Assembly (NCBI GenBank): GCA_039815185.1
Contig: JBCBZT010000002.1
Span: forward strand, 1 to 64,000
Direction of reading: 5' to 3'
From: Cyanobacteria bacterium P01_A01_bin.123
Lineage (GTDB): Bacteria; Cyanobacteriota; Cyanobacteriia; Phormidesmidales; Phormidesmidaceae
DNA: 64,000 nucleotides
Shown here: piece after piece, positions 29,365-50,865 of the stretch
How the letters are laid out: each line of letters begins with the position of its first letter
How positions within the stretch are numbered: the first letter of the stretch is position 1
Notes under the pieces: generated by a model
Seen by the model: the letters and a program-made list of their open reading frames with translations, nothing else
Told to the model about the DNA's origin: nothing
The model's database searches: none
Translations under genes and position numbers: made by a program

Positions 29365-30129
29365 ATGATAAAATCTTCGAAAAGTTACCACACCTTAAAA
29401 GAGCAGATTCAGTTGTCTGTTGATTTTGTGCTGCTATGTTGCCACTCAATGCCTGCTCTGAAGGGATATATTAAAGCTGTCGAAAAAGGAGGTGCAGAGA
29501 AAATACCCAACCCTGATATCTTCAAAAATACAGCAGAGTATGACAGACTGAAACAAATTATTCCTAATTACAGAAAAACCATAGGCCGCTTTCTTGTCTT
29601 GAGCTCATTTAGTTATTTTGAGTCTTATGTTTCAGATGTTATAGATGAGCTGTTTTTAATAAACGGTGGAGAAGCAGAGTTTTTGAAGATGGTAAAAGAC
29701 AAGCGAGATGATTACTTCGAAGTTATTGCTAGCCTCAATGAGAGAGCAAAGAAGCTCAGAGAAGAGAAAGATAAATCTAAAATCGAAAAGTACAGAAAGA
29801 TAATTGATGAGCTAACAAGATCAAATTACAAGTTTCCATCAGAGTTGCTTGCATTCTATGGAATTTTTCAACTTCAAGAAAAATTGATTAACATGAGAGC
29901 ATGTGATATTCCAGACATCATGGAAAATGCACTTGGCATTAAAATAGAAGAAGACGAAAGAACCGAATTCCATCGGATTAGAGAGCGAAGAAATGGTATA
30001 GCTCATGGAAAAATCACCGAAGTTGATTTATCAGAAGCCATTCAAATCAATAATTTTCTCAAAAACTTTGCTAAAAAAGTTGATCAGCACATAATTAGAA
30101 ATTTTTTTGTGATCGAGTCAGCCACTTGA
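29365..30129 (+). CDS. AT-rich hypothetical protein with a HEPN-like RxxxxH motif
   Basis: FSYFESYV near the N-terminus and RERRNGIAHG near the C-terminus; low GC. Confidence 0.65.
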   Translation: MIKSSKSYHTLKEQIQLSVDFVLLCCHSMPALKGYIKAVEKGGAEKIPNPDIFKNTAEYDRLKQIIPNYRKTIGRFLVLSSFSYFESYVSDVIDELFLINGGEAEFLKMVKDKRDDYFEVIASLNERAKKLREEKDKSKIEKYRKIIDELTRSNYKFPSELLAFYGIFQLQEKLINMRACDIPDIMENALGIKIEEDERTEFHRIRERRNGIAHGKITEVDLSEAIQINNFLKNFAKKVDQHIIRNFFVIESAT

Positions 30130-30920: not shown

Positions 30921-31301
30921 GTGATGCTTATGGAACTGACGATTGTAACTGAGCCAACTCCTCTAAAACTAAATGAAGATGGCGTGGTTCTCGTCGGGAA
31001 CACTCGCGTCACATTGGATACTGTGGTTGATGCTTTTTTGGAAGGTGCCACAGCAGAAGAGATTGTCGAGCAATATCCATCGCTTCAACTTGCAGATGTG
31101 TATTCAGTAATTAGTTACTACCTGCGTCGAAAAGCCGAAGTTGATGCCTATCTAAAAATTCGGCAAGAGCGTGCCGCGCAAGTTCGGCAAGAAAACGAGC
31201 GTCGTTTCAATCCAATTGGAATCCGCGATCGGCTGATGGCGAGACTTGACCATCAAAGACAAGGTTCAAATGCTACGCCTTTTAGCGGACGAGAACTTTA
31301 A
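30921..31301 (+). CDS. DUF433 antitoxin-like protein
   Basis: VGNTRVTLDTVV, GATAEEIVEQYPSLQLADVYSVISYY. Confidence 0.85.
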   Translation: MMLMELTIVTEPTPLKLNEDGVVLVGNTRVTLDTVVDAFLEGATAEEIVEQYPSLQLADVYSVISYYLRRKAEVDAYLKIRQERAAQVRQENERRFNPIGIRDRLMARLDHQRQGSNATPFSGREL

Positions 31302-31623
31302 CAACCAAATTGTTAGGGGTATTCTTAGACGAAGATCTGATATTGATATTGTCAGAGTTCAAGATGTAGGTCTGTCTAAAACTGATGATCGGGTCATTCT
31401 GGAATGGGCAGCACAAAAGGGGCGAATTCTATTGACTCATGATGTGGAAACAATGACCCGATACGCCTACGAGCGCGTACAGGCAGAGTTAGCAATGCCG
31501 GGAGTCTTTGAGATTAGTCGCAGCGTGCCGATTGGGTTGGCGATTGAGGAGGTCATCTTGATCACGGAGGGAAGCTTTGAGGGCGAATGGGAAGGACAAG
31601 TGCAATATTTGCCTCTCCGTTAA
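31270..31623 (+). CDS. DUF5615 PIN-like toxin
   Basis: MLRLLADENF, DDRVILEWA, RILLTHD; overlaps the DUF433 gene. Confidence 0.85.
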   Translation: MLRLLADENFNNQIVRGILRRRSDIDIVRVQDVGLSKTDDRVILEWAAQKGRILLTHDVETMTRYAYERVQAELAMPGVFEISRSVPIGLAIEEVILITEGSFEGEWEGQVQYLPLR

Positions 31624-34675: not shown

Positions 34676-35110
34676 TTAAGCCGCTACGAATTCAAACGGG
34701 TTGAACACCGCAACACCCGACTCCAAAAGATCCTTGACATTGCGCGTTGCCACGCAGAGGTTATGCTGCCTCGCGATCGCGGCGATGAACAAATCGGGTT
34801 GACTAAAGGTATAGCCACGCTTTCGTCCCTGCTCAAGCATTTGCCGCCAGATTAAAATCGTCTCCTCATCAATATTGAGAATTCGCGCTGTAAACCACGG
34901 TCGTAATATGTTGTCGATCCAGTGTGTTAACTCCGCTGCAAAGGTGGAATCGGTAACCTGGCAAATGCCAAAGCGAATCTCTGCGAGCGTTATCGTACTC
35001 AAATAAAAGGACTGGGGCGGCTGGCTTTCACTCCAAGCCTTAACAGCAGGATGGCAACGCGGCTTCCTCAATTCTGAAACGATATTGGTATCTAGCAACC
35101 AGCCATTCAC
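34676..35110 (-). CDS. vapC: VapC PIN-domain toxin
   Basis: LLDTNIVSE, DLFIAAIA, VATRNVKD. Confidence 0.9.
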   Translation of the reverse strand: MNGWLLDTNIVSELRKPRCHPAVKAWSESQPPQSFYLSTITLAEIRFGICQVTDSTFAAELTHWIDNILRPWFTARILNIDEETILIWRQMLEQGRKRGYTFSQPDLFIAAIARQHNLCVATRNVKDLLESGVAVFNPFEFVAA

Positions 35111-35472
35111 AATTCAATTTCTCGAATAGGGGATTGAACGCTAGCCGATTCAAATTCAAGCTTGCTTAATGGTGATTGAGAAAGGAGGGCATGCAAGTTA
35201 GGCTGAGCAAGCAACGGCAATATCTTTTCAAAAAGCTGAGTCGAGATAACGACTACCGCCTCTTCTCCTCGCACAGTAATCCTTTGTGGCTCTGTATGTT
35301 TTGCCTGCCTAACCACTTCACTCAATCGAGCTTTTGCATCTTCCAGTTTCCAATCTGGGAATTGCTCGAGTTGAGCAGCGAGTTGTTCACTGAGATGGGT
35401 TGATTCTGAAGACATATAGAGTACCTGACTAGCACTGGTCAGATCATATATCCATTGACAAATAGGCGGCAA
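35107..35472 (-). CDS. Phd/YefM-family antitoxin; start uncertain
   Basis: WKLEDAKARLSEVVRQA..EPQRITVRG; 4-nt overlap with vapC. Confidence 0.85.
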   Translation of the reverse strand: MPPICQWIYDLTSASQVLYMSSESTHLSEQLAAQLEQFPDWKLEDAKARLSEVVRQAKHTEPQRITVRGEEAVVVISTQLFEKILPLLAQPNLHALLSQSPLSKLEFESASVQSPIREIEL

Positions 35473-38393: not shown

Positions 38394-39188
38394 GTGTCTG
38401 TTGTTGGCAAGATTGAAAGCATCTGGCGTTATCCCGTCAAAAGCATGTGCGGGGAAGAACTGGAGGAAGCCTTTGTCTCCTTTGCAGGGGTGATGGGCGA
38501 TCGCGTTTATGGCTTCCTTAAAAGCAACGGCAATCCCGGTTTCCCTTGGCATACCGCCCGCGACCAAGAATCGCTGCTGCTGTACAAGCCCCGATTCAAA
38601 AATGCGAGTCTGACGATCAAGCCTGAAAATCTGGCAGCGGCGCAAGATATGGGTCCAGGCATTAATCCGGTCTATCCAGAAACAGCGCAATTTGCAGTCG
38701 AGGTTGAAACCCCAGACGGTGAGGTTTACAGCGTCGAGGATGAGGCTTTTGTAGCGCATCTCAAGACAGTAACGAATAACGAAACCCTAAAGCTGCACTT
38801 CACCCAACGGAGCCAGTTTGACTGCCGCCCACTCACCCTATTTTCACTACAGTTGGGTGAACTGTTGAGTGAAGAGTTGGGCATCACCCTTGATAAGCGA
38901 CGGTTTCGGTCTAACCTTTACGTGAATTGGAGCGGTGATAAGCCGAAGCTTTATGAAAAAGAGCTAATCGGGAAACGCCTAAAGATTGGGGACATGCTAG
39001 AAGTGAGTTTGCTAGAGCGTGACCCCAGATGCAAAATGATCACCCTTGATCCAGACACCTCTGAGGCAAATCCTGAGGTGATTAAGCATGTCTCGAAGGC
39101 TCACGAAGGCTATGCCGGGGTCTATGGTGCAGTGCTGGTTGAGGGTGTGGTGAAAACAGGGGATGCGATCGAGCTTTTGGATGATTAA
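38394..39188 (+). CDS. MOSC-domain (mARC/YcbX-like) molybdenum-cofactor protein
   Basis: IWRYPVKSMCGE, GDR, RRFRSNL, PRCKMITLDP. Confidence 0.88.
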   Translation: MSVVGKIESIWRYPVKSMCGEELEEAFVSFAGVMGDRVYGFLKSNGNPGFPWHTARDQESLLLYKPRFKNASLTIKPENLAAAQDMGPGINPVYPETAQFAVEVETPDGEVYSVEDEAFVAHLKTVTNNETLKLHFTQRSQFDCRPLTLFSLQLGELLSEELGITLDKRRFRSNLYVNWSGDKPKLYEKELIGKRLKIGDMLEVSLLERDPRCKMITLDPDTSEANPEVIKHVSKAHEGYAGVYGAVLVEGVVKTGDAIELLDD

Positions 39189-39271
39189 AGTGGCATTTAT
39201 TACAGGGGAATGCATATAGTAGGGCAAGGTAATATTTGAACCAAATTAATACTTTGCGCTAGGTATAAGGC

Positions 39272-40135
39272 ATGCCAGATCCTCGGCTGATTGCGATTAA
39301 AGGTACCGATAATGCCGACCGTCAGGGGGACGTGATTTTTGTCCATGGCCTGGGTGGCAGTGCCCTAGAAACCTGGCATACAGATAAGAAAGCCCTAGAA
39401 AAAGCTCAAAAGTCTGAGGGTGAGGCATTTCAACCGGGGCAGTTAAATTTTTGGCCTGCCTGGTTGGGTGAAGATTATCCCCAACTGGGGATTTGGTCGT
39501 TAGATTACGACATTGAACCCTTAGCTTGGCGGGGAAACACCATGCCGCTGACGGATCGGGCCACGAATATTCTGCAAGTCTTCTCGAACAAACGGATTGG
39601 CAATCGCCCCATTCTGTTTATCACCCACAGTATGGGCGGATTGTTGGTCAAGCAGATGCTCCGCAGCGCTTTTGATTTTGGCAACCCCCGGTGGAAAAAG
39701 ATTGAGGAAAATACGAAGGGGATTGTCTTTTTGGCGACGCCCCATTCAGGATCTGACTTGTCGAACCTGATGCAGTTCGTCAATCGGGTTTTGCAAGGGG
39801 TGATGCGGGCTAGTGTGAGTGTGGAAGAACTGGAAGCGAATCACTCGCGTCTGCGGGAACTGAACAATGTCTACCGGAACCATACTCGGCTTAGTCAGAT
39901 TCCGGTTGACGCCTATTTTGAGACACAGCCCTACAACCCCGTTGGGCTGGTCGTAGATCAGGCCAGTGCTGATCCGGGTATGCAGGGGGTGGTGCCCATT
40001 GGTGTTGGTGCAGACCACATCACGATTTGCAAAATTGCTCCTGAAGACAAGACCAACAGCATTGTTTATAACAGCATCAAGCTGTTTATAGAAGATTACT
40101 TACTCGCAAAGACAGAGGTACCTCAACGCCCTTAA
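39272..40135 (+). CDS. Alpha/beta hydrolase (SERAC1/PGAP1/SesB-like lipase fold)
   Basis: IFVHGLGG, THSMGG nucleophile elbow, LATPHSGS, ADHITICK. Confidence 0.85.
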   Translation: MPDPRLIAIKGTDNADRQGDVIFVHGLGGSALETWHTDKKALEKAQKSEGEAFQPGQLNFWPAWLGEDYPQLGIWSLDYDIEPLAWRGNTMPLTDRATNILQVFSNKRIGNRPILFITHSMGGLLVKQMLRSAFDFGNPRWKKIEENTKGIVFLATPHSGSDLSNLMQFVNRVLQGVMRASVSVEELEANHSRLRELNNVYRNHTRLSQIPVDAYFETQPYNPVGLVVDQASADPGMQGVVPIGVGADHITICKIAPEDKTNSIVYNSIKLFIEDYLLAKTEVPQRP

Positions 40136-40174
40136 ATGCCCCTCCGTCTGATACTGGCATAGTGCCGGAGGGGC
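40126..40174 (+). other. Candidate -1 programmed frameshift signal
   Basis: A-CGC-CCT-TAA followed by a perfect 9-bp stem gcccctccg (40138-40146) / cggaggggc (40166-40174); the -1 frame is open into the NACHT ORF. Confidence 0.55.
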
Positions 40175-42375
40175 CAGCAGGTGTGCCATTGTTGGAGCAT
40201 CCATTTCACGGAGATGCTGACAAGGATAACTGGTTTGGAGGCTTTACTAATCATTCAGGCAGCAGTGGCCGAGTTGAAATCCATCAACATTATGGATTGC
40301 CCAACACCAAGCCCGATGCGATCCATAGGGATAAGAAGGAAAAGATTTTAATTGATGCAGTTTGGACGGAGGTAGAAGATCGTTTAAGGCAATCTTTGCA
40401 CAATGCGATTTTGATTCGCTTAGATATGGCGGAGCAGCGTAACCAGGTGAGTCGCCCTTGGGACAGCCAGTTGCGCACGGCTGAGCAGGGTATAAAACCC
40501 TTAGAACCCGGCACCCACATTGCCGACGTGTTTGATCGGCGGGATGTGGGGGGTAAGCTGCTAATTTTGGGTAATCCCGGTTCAGGAAAGACGACCACGA
40601 TGTTGGATCTGGCAGCAGTGCTGATTCAACGAGCCAATGCCCAGCCTGACCAGCCGATTCCGGTGATGTTTAATCTGTCGTCTTGGCAGAATGCCAAGCA
40701 AAGTATTACCGACTGGCTGCTGGGTGAATTGAAGCTGAAGTACGGGGTATCGCCAAAGCTGGGACAGACCTGGCTGGCGGAGAAAAAGCTGTTGCCGTTG
40801 CTAGATGGGTTAGATGAGTTACCCCCGCAGCGACAAGAACCTGTGGTGCAAGCGATTAACGATTGGTTGCAGTCGGGGGAGGGGCCAACGCGACTGTTGG
40901 TGTGCAGCCGCATTGAAGAGTATGGGCTGTATGGGGCAAAACTGGCGTTGAATGGGGCCATTTGCCTGGAACTGCTCACAGATATACAGCTCCAGGACTA
41001 CTTAAACTCATTAAGAATGGGTGACCTATGGCAGACTCTGCAACAAGACACCGCGCTGCTGGGCTTGGTGAGGACACCACTTGTGTTATGCGTCTCGGTT
41101 TTGACGCATGAGGCAATCGATCCAGATCAGTGGAGGCGAAAGCAAACAACCACAGAGCGGACGGGCTATTTGCTAGACGCATATGTAAAACGACAGTTGC
41201 ATAAAGCTGTCAAGAGAGAGAGAAATCTATCAGTCAAACAGTTCACAGCGAAACAAATTCGTCGCCAACTTACTTGGCTTGCAAGAAGATTAATAGCAAT
41301 TTCCTCAGATGAGTTTTCTATTGAAGAGATTCAATCAGATTTTCTAAATAAACGGCGAAAAAGAGTTTACAAGATGGTTGTTTCTCTTGGTTTCGGAATA
41401 ATTATCGGTTGCATTTATTGGCTATTATGCAGAATTATATATACCTTGGTCATCGAAAGCGACTATCTTGTTGCATATATTGAAAATCTTGTTAGTACTT
41501 CATTTCCTTCATTTCCTTCATTTAGACATAACCAAATTTTTGATTCTTATATAAAAGGATTTGATTTCGCCTTCCACAGAGGAGCTCTTTGGGGAATGAT
41601 AATATCAATGCTTTGCGGAGCATTTCTTGGCTTCAATGAAAGTAGAAGAAATATTATGTTTACGGAGGCATTTTCTTTTCAGGGAATAAATAGAAAAACT
41701 CTAAAGATTTGGTTGATTGCTAGTCTAGCTTTAGGACTTGGCTTTGGCTTGATCTGTTTGGCTACTTTTGGAATTAATATCCTATATTCTCCCCGATTTT
41801 ACATTTATTCTGAAACTATTGACTCGCAAGCTCTAGGGCCAGCAGGTTCTATCGAGCCCATATTTTTGAAAGGCTCATTTCCTTATAAAATGGGAGTTAT
41901 ATATCTCCTTTTTACAGCTATTTCTTGGATAAAATTCTGGATTTTGTTCGGCATATTCAAAGGTATAAAAAAGCCAATTGAGGTAAAATATTTCTCCTCC
42001 CAAGGGATCTTAAATAATTTCAGGATGGCTGCATTATATTCTTTCTTTATATGTATTTTGATCACATTTTTCTCATTTATATGCCTCTCTTTTATTTCTA
42101 ATGTAGGCAATGTAGTTCATATCGTTTGGATTACAATGCCAATAATTTTTTTGTGTGCAGTTCTGATGAGCTTGGCATCTCTTGGTTTGCCATTAATTCA
42201 ACATTTTGTGCTTCGATTCTTACTTTGTAAGAGTGAAGGAATTCCCTGGAACTATACCTGCTTCCTCAACCACTGCACTGAACGCCTCATACTCCAGCGA
42301 GTCGGCGGGCGCTATCGGTTCATCCACAAACTTATACAAGAGCATTTTGCAGCCATGCCGATGGGGCGAGAGTGA
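40162..42375 (+). CDS. NACHT NTPase with multi-pass C-terminal transmembrane region
   Basis: GNPGSGKTT, LLDGLDEL, RTPL, hydrophobic helices, terminal LQRVGGRYRFIHKLIQEHFA. Confidence 0.88.
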   Translation: MPEGPAGVPLLEHPFHGDADKDNWFGGFTNHSGSSGRVEIHQHYGLPNTKPDAIHRDKKEKILIDAVWTEVEDRLRQSLHNAILIRLDMAEQRNQVSRPWDSQLRTAEQGIKPLEPGTHIADVFDRRDVGGKLLILGNPGSGKTTTMLDLAAVLIQRANAQPDQPIPVMFNLSSWQNAKQSITDWLLGELKLKYGVSPKLGQTWLAEKKLLPLLDGLDELPPQRQEPVVQAINDWLQSGEGPTRLLVCSRIEEYGLYGAKLALNGAICLELLTDIQLQDYLNSLRMGDLWQTLQQDTALLGLVRTPLVLCVSVLTHEAIDPDQWRRKQTTTERTGYLLDAYVKRQLHKAVKRERNLSVKQFTAKQIRRQLTWLARRLIAISSDEFSIEEIQSDFLNKRRKRVYKMVVSLGFGIIIGCIYWLLCRIIYTLVIESDYLVAYIENLVSTSFPSFPSFRHNQIFDSYIKGFDFAFHRGALWGMIISMLCGAFLGFNESRRNIMFTEAFSFQGINRKTLKIWLIASLALGLGFGLICLATFGINILYSPRFYIYSETIDSQALGPAGSIEPIFLKGSFPYKMGVIYLLFTAISWIKFWILFGIFKGIKKPIEVKYFSSQGILNNFRMAALYSFFICILITFFSFICLSFISNVGNVVHIVWITMPIIFLCAVLMSLASLGLPLIQHFVLRFLLCKSEGIPWNYTCFLNHCTERLILQRVGGRYRFIHKLIQEHFAAMPMGRE

Positions 42376-42388
42376 TGGAGGTACTTTG

Positions 42389-42625
42389 ATGGTCGAAGGA
42401 CTAATTTTTCGCTACGACAAAGTAGGAGATATCCTTTATATCGACAAATGCTCACCTTACCCAGAGCAAGAATCTGATGAAATTGGCGATGAAATGATTG
42501 CTCGCTTTAACCCTGACTCTGGGGAGATTGAAAATCTGGAAATTCTGTTTTTCTCTAAACGCCTATTTGATGCCAACATTTTGGAACTCCCCGTCATTGC
42601 GAATATGCGGTTGGCGGCATCTTAG
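42389..42625 (+). CDS. DUF2283-family small protein (orphan antitoxin-like)
   Basis: RYDKVGDILYID...GEIENLEIL; GGAGG upstream. Confidence 0.75.
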   Translation: MVEGLIFRYDKVGDILYIDKCSPYPEQESDEIGDEMIARFNPDSGEIENLEILFFSKRLFDANILELPVIANMRLAAS

Positions 42626-42633
42626 AGAGATCG

Positions 42634-43172
42634 TTAATGCCTTGGTTTGTAGTTCAGCATGCCGCCCATCATCGCCCCGATAACCGTGGCAGGGAGCACC
42701 GCCAAAATCAGGACTAGACCGCTATAGGTGATGCCCAACATGCCGTCACCGGCTGTTTCAGGATTTGCCATCTCTACAAAAATCCCAGGACTAGCCACGC
42801 GGCAACCGATGGCAAAGGCAATCACGGCGGCGATCAGACTTCCCAGCACCATGTTTAACCCCAGTTGGGCACCTTTGAGTAGAGATCGCTGCACCATAGC
42901 GGCAATGATTCCCGCCACTAAGCTAATTGCCGTGCCAAGAATGCCAGCGATAAAGACCGTGATGAAAACTAAATAGACGAGGGCAGGCCATCCCCCGCGA
43001 TCGCGAGATATAAAACGCTCACCCCTACCATTGCCCCCACCAGCCAAGGGATAACTGCCCGCGATCGCCTTTGCCGCTGCATCAGTTTGAGGATGACAGT
43101 AAGAGCAACGCCCACCAGCATCACAGGAATCAAAAATATAACGTAGCCTAACCATGGATCGGCAATCAGCAT
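42634..43172 (-). pseudogene. Frameshifted membrane protein gene
   Basis: Hydrophobic ORF MLIADPWLGY...LAIAG continues as GWPALVYLVF... in another frame at a G5 run (plus strand C5 42992-42996). Confidence 0.65.
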
Positions 43173-47739: not shown

Positions 47740-49881
47740 ATGGTCAACGTCGTTCGAGGCGATGTCGCTAAACCAGTTTCATCTAAAAGGCTAGCCGAAT
47801 ACTTTGAAGCCAGAGTTGATATTGATGGCAGCCTATACATGGGATATCCAATTATAGGAACTCCGCAAGGAGGCTATCAAATCGACGCTCTTTTAATATC
47901 AAGAGAACACGGCGTCGTTATTTTTAACTTGGTAGAAGGTATTGAAAGTGATGTTGATATAGAAGAGGTACAGGATGAGAGTATAACTAAAATTCAATCG
48001 AAGCTCCTTCAACATAAGGCACTGACTAGTAGAAGAAGGCTAATGGTTGAAATCAATGTTGTCACTTATGCACCGGCTTTAAGTCATAAGCCAAGTATCT
48101 CCGAAGATTATCATGTGCTCATCAATGAGAATGAGTTAGCAGAGTATCTCAATTCTCAGAGTTGGGAACATGATGAATATTTTGAGAAGCTTAATTCAGT
48201 AATTCAAGCCATTACCTCTATCAGAAAAAGAAAACAGAGGAACTATGTACAACAGGAGAATTCTCGAGGTGCAAAGTTAAGCAGATTAGAGGATTCAATA
48301 GCAAATTTAGACAGGAATCAGAGTGCTGCTGTAATTGAAACTGTAGAGGGAGTACAAAGAATTAGAGGGCTTGCAGGCTCAGGAAAAACTATTGTTCTAG
48401 CTCTCAAGGTTGCATATTTACATGCAAAGCATCCTGATTGGAATATAGCTGTAACTTTTAATACTCGCTCGCTTAAAGGTCAGTTCAAACAGCTAATTAA
48501 TACATTTACTATTGAACATACTAGCGAGGAACCAGATTGGGAAAAGGTAAAAATCATACATGCTTGGGGTAGTCCTTCCAAGGATGGAATTTATTATGAA
48601 TTTTGTAAGAGACATAATGTAGAATATCGAGATCTCAGCAGAGCCAGAAAAATCGCTAACTCATATGGTCAGGAGTTTGATGCTGTTTGCGAGGAATCCC
48701 TCAGTAAAGTATCAGAATTTGAACAATATTATGATGCGATTTTGATTGATGAAGCACAAGATTTCTCCAAACACTTCCTAAGGCTTTGCTATGAAATTCT
48801 CACAGAACCAAAGAGGCTAGTGTATGCCTATGATGAATTGCAAAGCTTAAATAAAAAAGTAATGGAATCGCCAGAGTCTATTTTTGGTGATGACTCTTAT
48901 GGTAATCCTCGTGTTCTATTGCAGAATCGTATTGGTGAACCTAAACAAGACATTATCTTAGAGAAATGCTATAGAAATTCCCGCCCAATTTTAGTCTCTG
49001 CTCATTCTCTTGGCTTTGGGATATATAGGGACGATGGGCTGGTTCAGATGTTTGAATACTCTGGTTTGTGGAGAGATATTGGCTACGAGGTTGAAGAAGG
49101 AAATTTAGAAGACAATAGTTCTGTAAAACTTGCTAGAAACGAGAATACAAGCCCAAGATTTCTCGAAACTCATTCCTCAATAGAGGACTTAATTATATTT
49201 AAGTCATTTGATACTGATGGTGATCAAATTGAATGGCTTGTTAACCAGATAGACACAAATTTGAAGCAAGATGAGTTAAAGTATGACGACATAATGGTCA
49301 TACATACAAATCCATTGACAGCCAGAAAAGCCCTAGGAGTTGCTAGAGAAGCTCTTTTTGACAAAGGCATTAACTCCAGCTTAGCCGGAGTAACGACTTC
49401 ACCCGATGAATTTTTCAATGAAAATTCCATCGTTTTCACTAGTATCAACAGAGCCAAAGGTAACGAAGCTGCAATGATTTATGTGATTAATGCACAATTA
49501 TGCTTTTCTGGTTTTGAGCTTGCGAGAAAGAGAAATATTCTATTCACTGCAATGACTCGAAGCAAGGCTTGGTTGAGAGTTGTCGGACATGGTGAGAGCA
49601 TGAAAAGCTTAGTGCATGAATATGAAAAAGTAAAACAAAAGAATTTTACTCTCGATTTCCTATATCCCAGCGAATCAGAACGAAGGAGAATGAATCTTGT
49701 TAATAGAGATATGAGTCCTAGAGAACGTGAACTTCTGAAAGACAGGAGTAAGCAGGATAATTTCAAGGAAGTACTTGAGGCTCTTGTGCAAGGTGAAATC
49801 CATCTTGAAGACTTACCTTCTGATGTTCAAGAGAGTTTGAAGAAATTTGCAACCAATCAGCCTGAGACCAAAAGTGACTAA
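47740..49881 (+). CDS. SF1 (UvrD-like) helicase with an N-terminal NERD-like domain
   Basis: GLAGSGKT, IDEAQD, CYRNS, RAKGNE, FTAMTRSK; low GC. Confidence 0.88.
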   Translation: MVNVVRGDVAKPVSSKRLAEYFEARVDIDGSLYMGYPIIGTPQGGYQIDALLISREHGVVIFNLVEGIESDVDIEEVQDESITKIQSKLLQHKALTSRRRLMVEINVVTYAPALSHKPSISEDYHVLINENELAEYLNSQSWEHDEYFEKLNSVIQAITSIRKRKQRNYVQQENSRGAKLSRLEDSIANLDRNQSAAVIETVEGVQRIRGLAGSGKTIVLALKVAYLHAKHPDWNIAVTFNTRSLKGQFKQLINTFTIEHTSEEPDWEKVKIIHAWGSPSKDGIYYEFCKRHNVEYRDLSRARKIANSYGQEFDAVCEESLSKVSEFEQYYDAILIDEAQDFSKHFLRLCYEILTEPKRLVYAYDELQSLNKKVMESPESIFGDDSYGNPRVLLQNRIGEPKQDIILEKCYRNSRPILVSAHSLGFGIYRDDGLVQMFEYSGLWRDIGYEVEEGNLEDNSSVKLARNENTSPRFLETHSSIEDLIIFKSFDTDGDQIEWLVNQIDTNLKQDELKYDDIMVIHTNPLTARKALGVAREALFDKGINSSLAGVTTSPDEFFNENSIVFTSINRAKGNEAAMIYVINAQLCFSGFELARKRNILFTAMTRSKAWLRVVGHGESMKSLVHEYEKVKQKNFTLDFLYPSESERRRMNLVNRDMSPRERELLKDRSKQDNFKEVLEALVQGEIHLEDLPSDVQESLKKFATNQPETKSD

Positions 49882-49918
49882 CATATTAATAAGTAGAATG
49901 ATACATAACTATTCTGTT

Positions 49919-50040
49919 AAGAGCACCTCGAAAATAAATTTGGACTCCAAAACCGATAGCTGAAATCCTTTAATTCTCGTTGATGATTCTCAATCATGAG
50001 AGCTTATTCTCAATGACCTTGAATTAATCGAGGTGCTCTT
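49919..50040. mobile_element. MITE-like 122-bp element
   Basis: Perfect 13-bp terminal inverted repeats aagagcacctcga / tcgaggtgctctt; non-coding interior. Confidence 0.6.
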
Positions 50041-50199
50041 CAGATAATTAATTCTCATTAAGTTCAAAAAAAATGCGCTGCTTTCGAAAGCAGCTTCTTT
50101 TATGTATTCTATGAAAATGTTATATATCTATTTAAGATACTGCTGTTTGGATCTAGAGTTTGAGCAGTGGCAGCAATTTCACAATGAATCATTTTAGCT

Positions 50200-50865
50200 A
50201 TGCTAGACCATCTCGGCATTCATAATCAGGTGAGTACAATTACTCAGAAGTTGATATCTATTAACTTGTCAGTTAAACAAAAGTTTCCTTCATGTACGAC
50301 AACGGGAAGAGATAGCTACAAAATCTCATATTCGGGCATGCAGGATATTTCGATAGCTCTTAAAAATGTTGAGTATAAGGAAATATATGAAGAGTTAGAT
50401 GAAGATGAAAATTACAATATAAAAATGATTGATGGGGCACTAATACAACTCTTATATACTTACAAAGACTCTACCTTAGCTTCACATCGGCTAGCCTTCT
50501 TTCCATCTCCTTTTTTACACGACTTTCAGAATGAACCTGAAATATATGAGGAAGATGAAATATATGCAGATATAATAGCTAAAAATGTACTACCTGTTCC
50601 TGTCAGATTTGATTTTGATTATGATCCAAAAAAACACGTAGAGTTAGACCATCCTAAATGCCATTTAACTTTGGGACAGTTTAAGAACTGTAGAATCCCT
50701 GTGTGTTCTCCGATCACTCCAAATGCATTTATAGATTTTATTCTTCGCAGTTTTTACAATACTGCATTTCAAAAATTTACTGACCAATTAAATTTCTCTA
50801 GTAATTTATTTGATGAGACTATTACTTCTACAGAAAAGAAGCTAATACATTTAGCTATTTCTTAA
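50200..50865 (+). CDS. DUF2290-family protein
   Basis: MIDGALIQL, HRLAFFPSP, PVRFDFD, HPKCHLTLGQFKNCRIPV; follows the helicase. Confidence 0.8.
   Translation: MLDHLGIHNQVSTITQKLISINLSVKQKFPSCTTTGRDSYKISYSGMQDISIALKNVEYKEIYEELDEDENYNIKMIDGALIQLLYTYKDSTLASHRLAFFPSPFLHDFQNEPEIYEEDEIYADIIAKNVLPVPVRFDFDYDPKKHVELDHPKCHLTLGQFKNCRIPVCSPITPNAFIDFILRSFYNTAFQKFTDQLNFSSNLFDETITSTEKKLIHLAIS

Follow-up and report, generated by a model that had tools for sequence, protein, structure and literature searches.

Hydrolase gene and NACHT reading frame

The window considered here is a stretch of 64,000 nucleotides of the cyanobacterial genome bin P01_A01_bin.123 (contig JBCBZT010000002.1), and the element in question is the junction between two genes on its forward strand, an alpha/beta-hydrolase gene and an overlapping NACHT reading frame. 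The junction carries a short slip motif followed by a hairpin, and this conserved cassette probably drives programmed −1 ribosomal frameshifting. The hydrolase gene, of the PGAP1/DUF676 and sesB/SERAC1-like kind, occupies positions 39272..40135 and encodes a zero-frame product of 287 amino acids, which matches the Pfam models PGAP1 (E 1.6e-8) and DUF676, both above cutoff. In 13 aligned relatives the residues His25-Gly26, His119-Ser120-x-Gly-Gly, Glu217 and His249 are invariant, which suggests an oxyanion His-Gly pair, Ser120 as the nucleophile, and a triad formed with Glu217 and His249. Fold signature and catalytic residues are those of the sesB/SERAC1-like hydrolases, for which a lipid-modifying activity is predicted here; the sequence search for a solved structure related to the hydrolase returned none. 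In PADLOC, the protein matches the model DUF626_VIII (E 4e-24), which we take to be part of a retron system.

The second gene is the −1 frame open reading frame (ORF) at 40132..42375, which contains 747 codons after the slip and is composed of a linker, a NACHT module, a variable transmembrane region of low GC content, and a conserved C-terminal tail. The NACHT match (PF05729, E 3.6e-8) is above cutoff, and the Walker A and Walker B motifs are located at 40570 and 40798. Hydropathy reveals five hydrophobic segments between 41374 and 42198, after the NACHT module, and one more inside the NTPase module. The ORF thus combines an NTPase module bearing Walker A and B with a C-terminal transmembrane region, as expected of the bacterial NACHT (bNACHT) class, and an N-terminal effector would stand in the same chain only through the proposed shift, while it is joined in frame in the Moorena protein P0052 described below. 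The transmembrane part has a GC content of 0.34 at 41201-42200, compared with 0.52 before it and about 0.5 to either side. The NACHT core and the tail are spanned by related contigs, but this part hardly is; one reading of the region is a sensor segment that is swapped or fast-changing.

The basic layout agrees with the original prediction, which was made from the letters of the window. The hydrolase ends in CAA-CGC-CCT-TAA (QRP and stop), the −1 frame is open through this stop into the NACHT ORF (without a stop codon from 40072 to 42375), and the fusion, foreseen at about 1,030 residues, has a calculated length of 287+747 = 1034. The contig (C76) belongs to an 8.1-Mb genome bin with a contamination of 6%. 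An independently assembled contig from the run X1, which may be the window's own source, is identical over 38800-43000, and no indel is seen in this contig-level comparison.

Slip site and hairpin at the junction

The slip tetramer C_CCU, in which a proline CCU codon would re-pair to CCC, is located at 40129..40132, and it is present in all 16 element-bearing loci found by NACHT protein homology. It is followed by a spacer of 5 nucleotides (40133..40137), which contains the zero-frame stop TAA (40133-40135), and by the putative stimulatory hairpin at 40138..40174, supported by conservation and covariation and spanning 37 nucleotides. The GC-rich, perfect 9-bp stem starting 5 nucleotides past CCT was described in the original prediction, and its arms are confirmed at 40138-40146 and 40166-40174. 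A gene for tRNA-Pro(GGG) is found in the genome, and this tRNA reads CCU by wobble. The sequence GAGGU at 40115..40119, 9 nucleotides upstream of the slip site, resembles a Shine-Dalgarno (SD) sequence and could act as a 5′ stimulator in this copy only; upstream SD-like matches of at least 4 nucleotides occur in just 5 of 29 junctions.

A heptamer of the X_XXY_YYZ type was considered as the slip site and rejected, in agreement with the original view that no canonical heptamer is present. The codon before CCT varies (AAC in 17, CGC in 8, GAC in 5 and others in 8 of 38 junctions), so that the neighbouring tRNA would be unable to re-pair, and only some copies are A-rich upstream of the slip site. 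The site fits instead the known Z_ZZN tetramer class (PMC4066793). The tetramer is in phase, one tRNA serves both ZZN and ZZZ, a conserved 3′ structure lies about 5 nucleotides downstream, and the overlapping −1 frame is under coding constraint upstream of any start.

The hairpin of the window copy is by itself only modestly above chance. Its fold has a z-score of −2.0 over 47 nucleotides, with 7 of 200 shuffles equally good, and of −0.8 over 81 nucleotides, and 16 of 1500 sampled ends of long ORFs in the same genome fold as well as the junction. The case for frameshifting therefore rests on conservation. The Rfam search at the junction gives no family, just 2 chance-level matches, and no terminator-like call is made at the hairpin.

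Two further parts of the original prediction concern the loop. A pseudoknot between the loop sequence CTGGC and the downstream GCCAG is rejected, because the pairing overlaps the last two bases of the stem and is not kept in relatives. As to the start of the NACHT gene, GTG 40162 does sit in the hairpin loop without a ribosome binding site, as had been noted, and this non-conserved codon is dismissed as the NACHT start; what had been overlooked is a possible own start of the NACHT ORF at GTG 40183..40185, 11 nucleotides behind GGAGG 40167-40171 in the 3′ arm.

Relatives found by protein homology

The sets of relatives collected by protein homology are unselected by motif, and they are given most weight, since kinship and motif selection inflate the pooled figures described further below. 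The hydrolase search of 60 other genomes finds matches in 4, and in all four the gene ends in C-CCT, 5 nucleotides and GCCCC. Three of them have the full hairpin and a long −1 ORF (encoding a NACHT protein, an nSTAND-type ATPase and an unassigned protein of 239 amino acids, respectively), while in the fourth only the 5′ half of the cassette is present, without a 3′ arm, and the frame does not stay open. A hydrolase-based search of genome contigs confirmed no relative.

With a limit of E 1e-60, the NACHT search gives matches in 43 of the family's 173 genomes, and of the 50 places listed 30 loci were retrieved. The cassette is present in 16 of these 30 loci, own locus counted, and each of the 16 has a −1 frame that runs without a stop between the slip site and the N-terminal motif conserved in the NACHT, with 11 different linker lengths of 40-92 codons. 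The codon before CCT ends in C in 16/16, even though it codes for Arg, Asn, Asp, Thr or Tyr. A similar persistence is seen in a contig of the run X2, whose hydrolase is about 93% alike: the hairpin island is kept there (47 of 54 letters), while the sequence on either side of it has been exchanged, for net differences of −18 and −9 nucleotides.

Natural in-frame fusions, for which the original prediction had proposed to look, are found as well: P0052, a NACHT protein of Moorena, has the order hydrolase-NACHT-transmembrane region, and P0001 is a hydrolase-nSTAND protein. The −1 ORF of the window is 32% identical to the C-terminal part of P0052 over 674 aligned columns. A converse arrangement is that of the loci L029 and L031, which are near the cassette-bearing L030 and L033 on the NACHT tree. 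Here, a T stands in place of C before the CCT of a CHAT-adaptor gene, no hairpin is present, and the NACHT has an SD sequence and a GTG of its own. The slip base and the stem thus appear to have been lost together where the NACHT has its own start. In the same two loci a glycine-rich-repeat linker is duplicated, and the SD and GTG of the NACHT overlap the stop of the CHAT-adaptor gene. Mapped onto the NACHT tree, the presence or absence of the cassette requires 7 changes, compared with a shuffled mean of 10.2, but only 2 of them are forced by strong branches, and for this reason no order of cassette events is claimed.

Among the homologues, motif and hairpin are therefore kept, with compensatory changes and frame-keeping indels, which lends support to the frameshift joining of hydrolase and NACHT as originally proposed. 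The cassette is wider in use than was thought, as most relatives combine other effectors with a Death-like adaptor.

Translation of the overlap

If the region behind the slip site is translated in the −1 frame, it is expected to evolve as protein. For the 24 codons leading up to the conserved motif, compared among 18 NACHT-type loci, the proportions of synonymous (pS) and nonsynonymous (pN) differences in this frame are 0.63 and 0.22. None of the 18 loci has a stop in these codons in the −1 frame, as against 14/18 and 13/18 in the other two frames. Four of the 18 are devoid of any ATG, GTG or TTG between the slip site and the motif, and pS exceeds pN in all six pairs formed by them. No start codon is conserved across the junctions; one lies within 15 nucleotides of the stem in 15 of the 38 pooled junctions (39%, compared with a background of 33%).

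Wider searches and pooled junctions

The exact pattern has 36 matches in genome contigs, divided into 24 junctions of this kind and 12 hairpins without the ORF pair. The 24 junctions come from records named Nodosilinea, Leptolyngbya, Brasilonema, Symploca and other cyanobacteria, together with one uncultured bacterium and one Actinomycetota bin. In the last of these (L070) a kinase-adaptor gene, the cassette and an NB-ARC-TPR gene follow one another, and both transfer and mis-binning are possible. The 12 hairpins belong to other bacteria (L040, L046, L048, L057, L058, L060, L064, L067-L069, L073 and L075), seven of them in sphingomonads, with L087 as a further case; they share the cassette head, and a repetitive extragenic palindromic (REP)-like origin is possible, but they were chosen by the pattern itself.

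The covariance model matches in 10 of 150 other genomes of the class. Of the resulting loci, 8 (1 of them decayed) show the gene arrangement and 3, all weak, do not; some of the model's matches carry paired changes within the core stem. The exact pattern, searched across the phylum, occurs in only 2 of 401 genomes. Given these two counts, the cassette is patchy outside the family of the window genome. In metagenome contigs the strict pattern has no matches, and a second pattern finds 1 locus, the same junction as one already in the set. Within its own genome the covariance model finds only the cassette of the window, no second copy is present among the listed −1 overlaps, and such a junction is absent from the seven NACHT paralogues checked, whose N-termini are open.

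Junctions were pooled if the upstream frame has at least 100 codons (or is cut by the end of the locus), its stop lies within 16 nucleotides and the stem has at least 7 pairs, with duplicates collapsed. The resulting 38 distinct junctions, many of which were found by pattern or covariance model, span seven cyanobacterial family labels. The span of the stem is 37 nucleotides in 27, 34 in 7, 40 in 2, 43 in 1 and 38 in 1 decayed copy, so that it is 1 modulo 3, and thus frame-keeping, in 37/38. The zero-frame stop is at +4 in 5 junctions, at +7 in 32 and at +16 in 1, the last being the largest distance that the filter allowed. The −1 ORF reaches at least 100 codons in 35 junctions; it is short in 2 others, and in 1 the contig ends within it. 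The upstream partner is a hydrolase, CHAT, TIR, trypsin, kinase or EAD8 module or an adaptor alone, mostly with the Death-like adaptor, and the downstream partner is a NACHT with a transmembrane region, another NACHT, an NB-ARC-TPR or an nSTAND/AAA protein. Conservation of the cassette and of the −1 reading relation is thereby shown across effectors, ATPase types and families.

In 29 aligned junctions, 91% of the stem cells are paired, and 26 cells are changed on both sides, compared with a shuffled mean of 9.3. The covariation of 0.240 compares with 0.123 in shuffled alignments, of which 0/500 are as high, and lies above all slid controls. As a control, 48 of 53 listed loose-pattern matches in viral contigs were examined; none has both ORFs, and 18/48 spans keep the frame. 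The 12 non-cyanobacterial pattern matches likewise include none with both ORFs, and 3/12 of their spans keep the frame.

Frameshifting and the alternative explanations

Several points weigh against programmed frameshifting and the role ascribed to it. A transframe protein or a ribosome footprint is not observed. The stimulator is only a hairpin of 9-11 bp with a modest z-score, and C_CCU is weak in Escherichia coli, where it needed a pseudoknot (PMC4066793). The cassette is missing from 14 of the 30 NACHT loci (8 in-frame adaptor-NACHT genes, 5 with their own start and 1 broken). A GGAGG arm together with a start codon within 15 nucleotides of the stem occurs in 11/38 junctions, the window copy included, so that separate synthesis of the ATPase is conceivable. 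The shuffled covariation controls can be surpassed through kinship alone, and invariance and covariation are partly circular, since the loci are related and many were picked by motif. Individual copies also deviate: L085 is decayed, with a 38-nucleotide span, a stop in the loop and a truncated NB-ARC; the −1 ORF of L063 has just 68 amino acids; L005 has the 5′ arm only; and the −1 ORFs of L045 and L090 have no Pfam match. As to function, the PADLOC match of the NACHT is weak and covers 31 residues only, and the role in defence is drawn by analogy only.

The alternative that deserves most attention, although it is unlikely, is translational coupling. The stem would hide an SD sequence in its 3′ arm, and ribosomes terminating at the hydrolase stop, which abuts the stem, would open it and start again at GTG 40183, so that two proteins and no fusion would result. 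The in-frame GTG 11 nucleotides behind GGAGG, a pair of the kind counted above in 11/38 junctions, and the separately started NACHT genes in the relatives L017, L029 and L031 are compatible with this. Against it, 23/38 junctions have no ATG, GTG or TTG within 15 nucleotides of the stem, the 39% that do are near the background of 33%, GGAGG is missing from 6/38 arms, and four loci without any start before the motif are evolving as protein. Coupling also has no need of CCCU, of a fixed −1 relation or of loop lengths that vary by threes. As a second route alongside frameshifting it may nonetheless operate in the window copy, where re-initiation at GTG 40183 may add free NACHT. A palindromic, REP-like repeat acting at the DNA level, either as a recombination point for module swapping or as an mRNA-stabilising stem with the −1 relation inherited and unused, is very improbable. 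The cassette does stand exactly at the module boundary and outlives the replacement of both flanks, a downstream AGGG is able to pair with CCCT in some copies, and the 12 non-cyanobacterial matches are mostly intergenic hairpins with the same head. These matches were pattern-selected, however, which makes the likeness circular; the cassette is single-copy in its own genome, the AGGG partner is missing in many copies that retain CCCT, and untranslated DNA would hold neither loop and linker lengths in steps of three nor pS above pN. The cassette may have originated in such a repeat, which is compatible with frameshifting.

The remaining two explanations are the least probable. According to one, scarcely credible by now, a once-fused hydrolase-NACHT gene was broken by a one-base indel, as a pseudogene or an assembly error, and the hairpin is there by chance. 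In-frame fusions of these domains are common, and the genome is a metagenome bin with the contamination given above and evidence at contig level; but the same break, with stop and stem, recurs in other genera and across seven families, flanked on each side by unrelated domains, and both ORFs are intact with catalytic residues kept. This explanation is largely refuted. The other, of an equally slight probability, is transcriptional slippage, in which the RNA polymerase would insert an extra base at the run of Cs. It would yield the same fusion and the same frame constraints, but the run has only three Cs in most copies, whereas slippage-prone runs are usually long A/T tracts, and the fixed distance of 5 nucleotides to the stem suits a ribosome and not a polymerase that has yet to transcribe the stem.

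Comparison with known frameshift systems

In the ranking of tetramers in E. coli by Sharma et al. 2014 (PMC4066793), A_AAG > U_UUY > C_CCY > A_AAA, the reporters shift at 0.26-5.6% with a 5-nucleotide spacer, and a strong stimulator is needed. C_CC.U is among the six shift-prone tetramers and was assayed with the 5-nucleotide spacer (PMC4066793). The junction resembles the Z_ZZN frameshifting of the IS3 family of insertion sequences (PMC4066793) in its four-base motif, cognate re-pairing of one tRNA and structure 5 nucleotides downstream, and, as predicted here from the sequence, in a short zero-frame product and a long fusion. It differs in the tetramer itself, C_CCU as opposed to A_AAG, U_UUC/U, A_AAA and a fifth, unnamed one in those elements (PMC4066793), and in that the stimulator is a simple hairpin and the genes are chromosomal effector-ATPase pairs rather than transposases.

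The predicted outcome of one gene and two products in a set ratio is shared with copA and csoS2 (PMC5009743), dnaX (PMC3711429) and the phage tail chaperone isoforms (PMC13581612). In the tail chaperone the long product is made by shifting (PMC13581612), as proposed here, while in copA and csoS2 the shift gives the shorter product (PMC5009743), unlike the present proposal. The slip site of dnaX is an A-rich heptamer, unlike C_CCU. Its shift also gives a shorter product. No immune receptor is among these four, nor a cassette that recurs between many unrelated pairs of domains.

Few chromosomal frameshifts of bacteria are known, and none was found in the literature for immune genes resembling NOD-like receptors (NLRs). 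Frameshifting between effectors and ATPases of the STAND class (signal transduction ATPases with numerous domains) was not found described in the article listings, abstracts and main-text passages covered; genes of this kind may be present in the cluster tables of PMC3711429. If the proposal is true, it represents a natural use of the proline tetramer as a slip site and a receptor-to-effector ratio set from one gene. Annotations would then split these genes and assign false starts to the ATPases, and surveys of bacterial NLRs would miss their effectors. The cassette is short and is present in cultured strains such as Nodosilinea nodulosa PCC 7104.

Adaptor and comparison with immune systems

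In most relatives, the upstream gene ends in a helical domain of 85 residues without a Pfam match, including any match to a Pfam model of the effector-associated domains (EADs). Its structure model (predicted local distance difference test 83) contains four helices, and CARD, PYD, DED and death domains make up most of the top 50 rows of the comparison, at Z of only 5-7; for BinCARD, Z is 6.7 and the root-mean-square deviation 3.3 over 75 aligned residues. Such likeness is no more than suggestive of a Death-like adaptor. In the window copy the hydrolase runs straight into the cassette, as it does in L045, L081, L084 and L089, and membership of the window copy in an EAD system is rejected, there being no adaptor joined to the hydrolase. 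A hidden Markov model built on the adaptor of the relatives detects only a single further protein in the own genome, in a 980-codon frame on the minus strand of G000:C130, at residues 646-733. The adaptor is followed there by an apparent FGE-sulfatase domain, read by eye, and the protein is a possible partner of a ternary-type system.

In EAD systems, the adaptors are proposed to recruit effectors homotypically (PMC8195603; PMC7159879). The relatives resemble these systems in combining a small helical adaptor with TIR, caspase-like, trypsin, kinase and alpha/beta-hydrolase effectors and with STAND ATPases (PMC7159879, PMC8195603). EAD systems have two adaptor copies in separate genes, whereas here one adaptor-coding stretch would enter both products; the word "frameshift" has 0 occurrences in the main texts of PMC7159879 and PMC8195603. 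The bNACHT genes of Kibby et al. (10.1101/2022.07.19.500537) share the layout of effector, NACHT and C-terminal transmembrane region, the abundance in cyanobacteria and the rapid swapping of effectors, but their effectors are described as directly fused (10.1101/2022.07.19.500537). Recoding is unmentioned in the portion of that text covered, outside which lie one occurrence of "frameshift" and the supplements (10.1101/2022.07.19.500537). The fungal sesB-like lipase NLRs (Dyrka et al. 2014, PMC4986451) likewise carry a SERAC1-like alpha/beta hydrolase N-terminal to NACHT or NB-ARC. Those are in-frame eukaryotic fusions with repeat sensors (PMC4986451), while in the window copy the two parts would be linked only by a frameshift, and the chain ends in a membrane region. 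To judge from these likenesses, the junction would work as an IS3-type tetramer frameshift seated in a gene of bNACHT type.

Proposed mechanism

The stem 5 nucleotides downstream would stall the ribosome with tRNA-Pro(GGG) on CCU. This single tRNA could then re-pair cognately from CCU to CCC, and reading would resume in the −1 frame. Going by the tetramer values of E. coli, one message would yield mostly the free 287-residue hydrolase and fewer copies of the 1034-residue hydrolase-NACHT-membrane fusion, and the stop directly after the slip codon in the window copy may raise the share of the latter. By the precedent of bNACHT proteins and fungal sesB NLRs, sensing of infection would lead the membrane-anchored NACHT to oligomerise and to activate the serine hydrolase against membrane lipids. 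The fusion is accordingly predicted to act as an NLR-like immune switch in defence. In the relatives, a Death-like adaptor in both products would recruit the excess of free effector onto the oligomer; the window copy has no adaptor, and its cassette may therefore mainly keep an armed receptor scarce.

A more general form of this proposal is a serious possibility, towards which we remain slightly more doubtful than convinced. It describes a portable recoding cassette of cyanobacteria, 46 nucleotides long (C_CCU, 5 nucleotides and a GC hairpin), perhaps a domesticated palindromic repeat, set between any effector or effector-adaptor module and any STAND ATPase. A single gene would supply an inflammasome-like assembly with its nucleator, bound to the receptor, and with free effector in excess; the ribosome would set their stoichiometry, and both products would contain a Death-like adaptor.

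Neighbouring genes and other observations

A DUF2283 gene is located at 42389-42625, after the NACHT gene, and L011, the closest NACHT relative, has a similar gene in the same place. Further away, a low-GC island at 47740-50865 contains a 713-residue UvrD-like helicase and a DUF2290 gene, and a HEPN (RiboL-PSP) protein is encoded at 29365-30129 within a low-GC patch. Near the HEPN gene, pairs judged by eye to be toxin-antitoxin-like are found at 30921-31623 and 34676-35472. Elsewhere in the genome, on the minus strand of G000:C107, two ORFs of 2392 and 6507 codons overlap in a −1 relation, and a strong hairpin lies about 30 nucleotides past the first stop.

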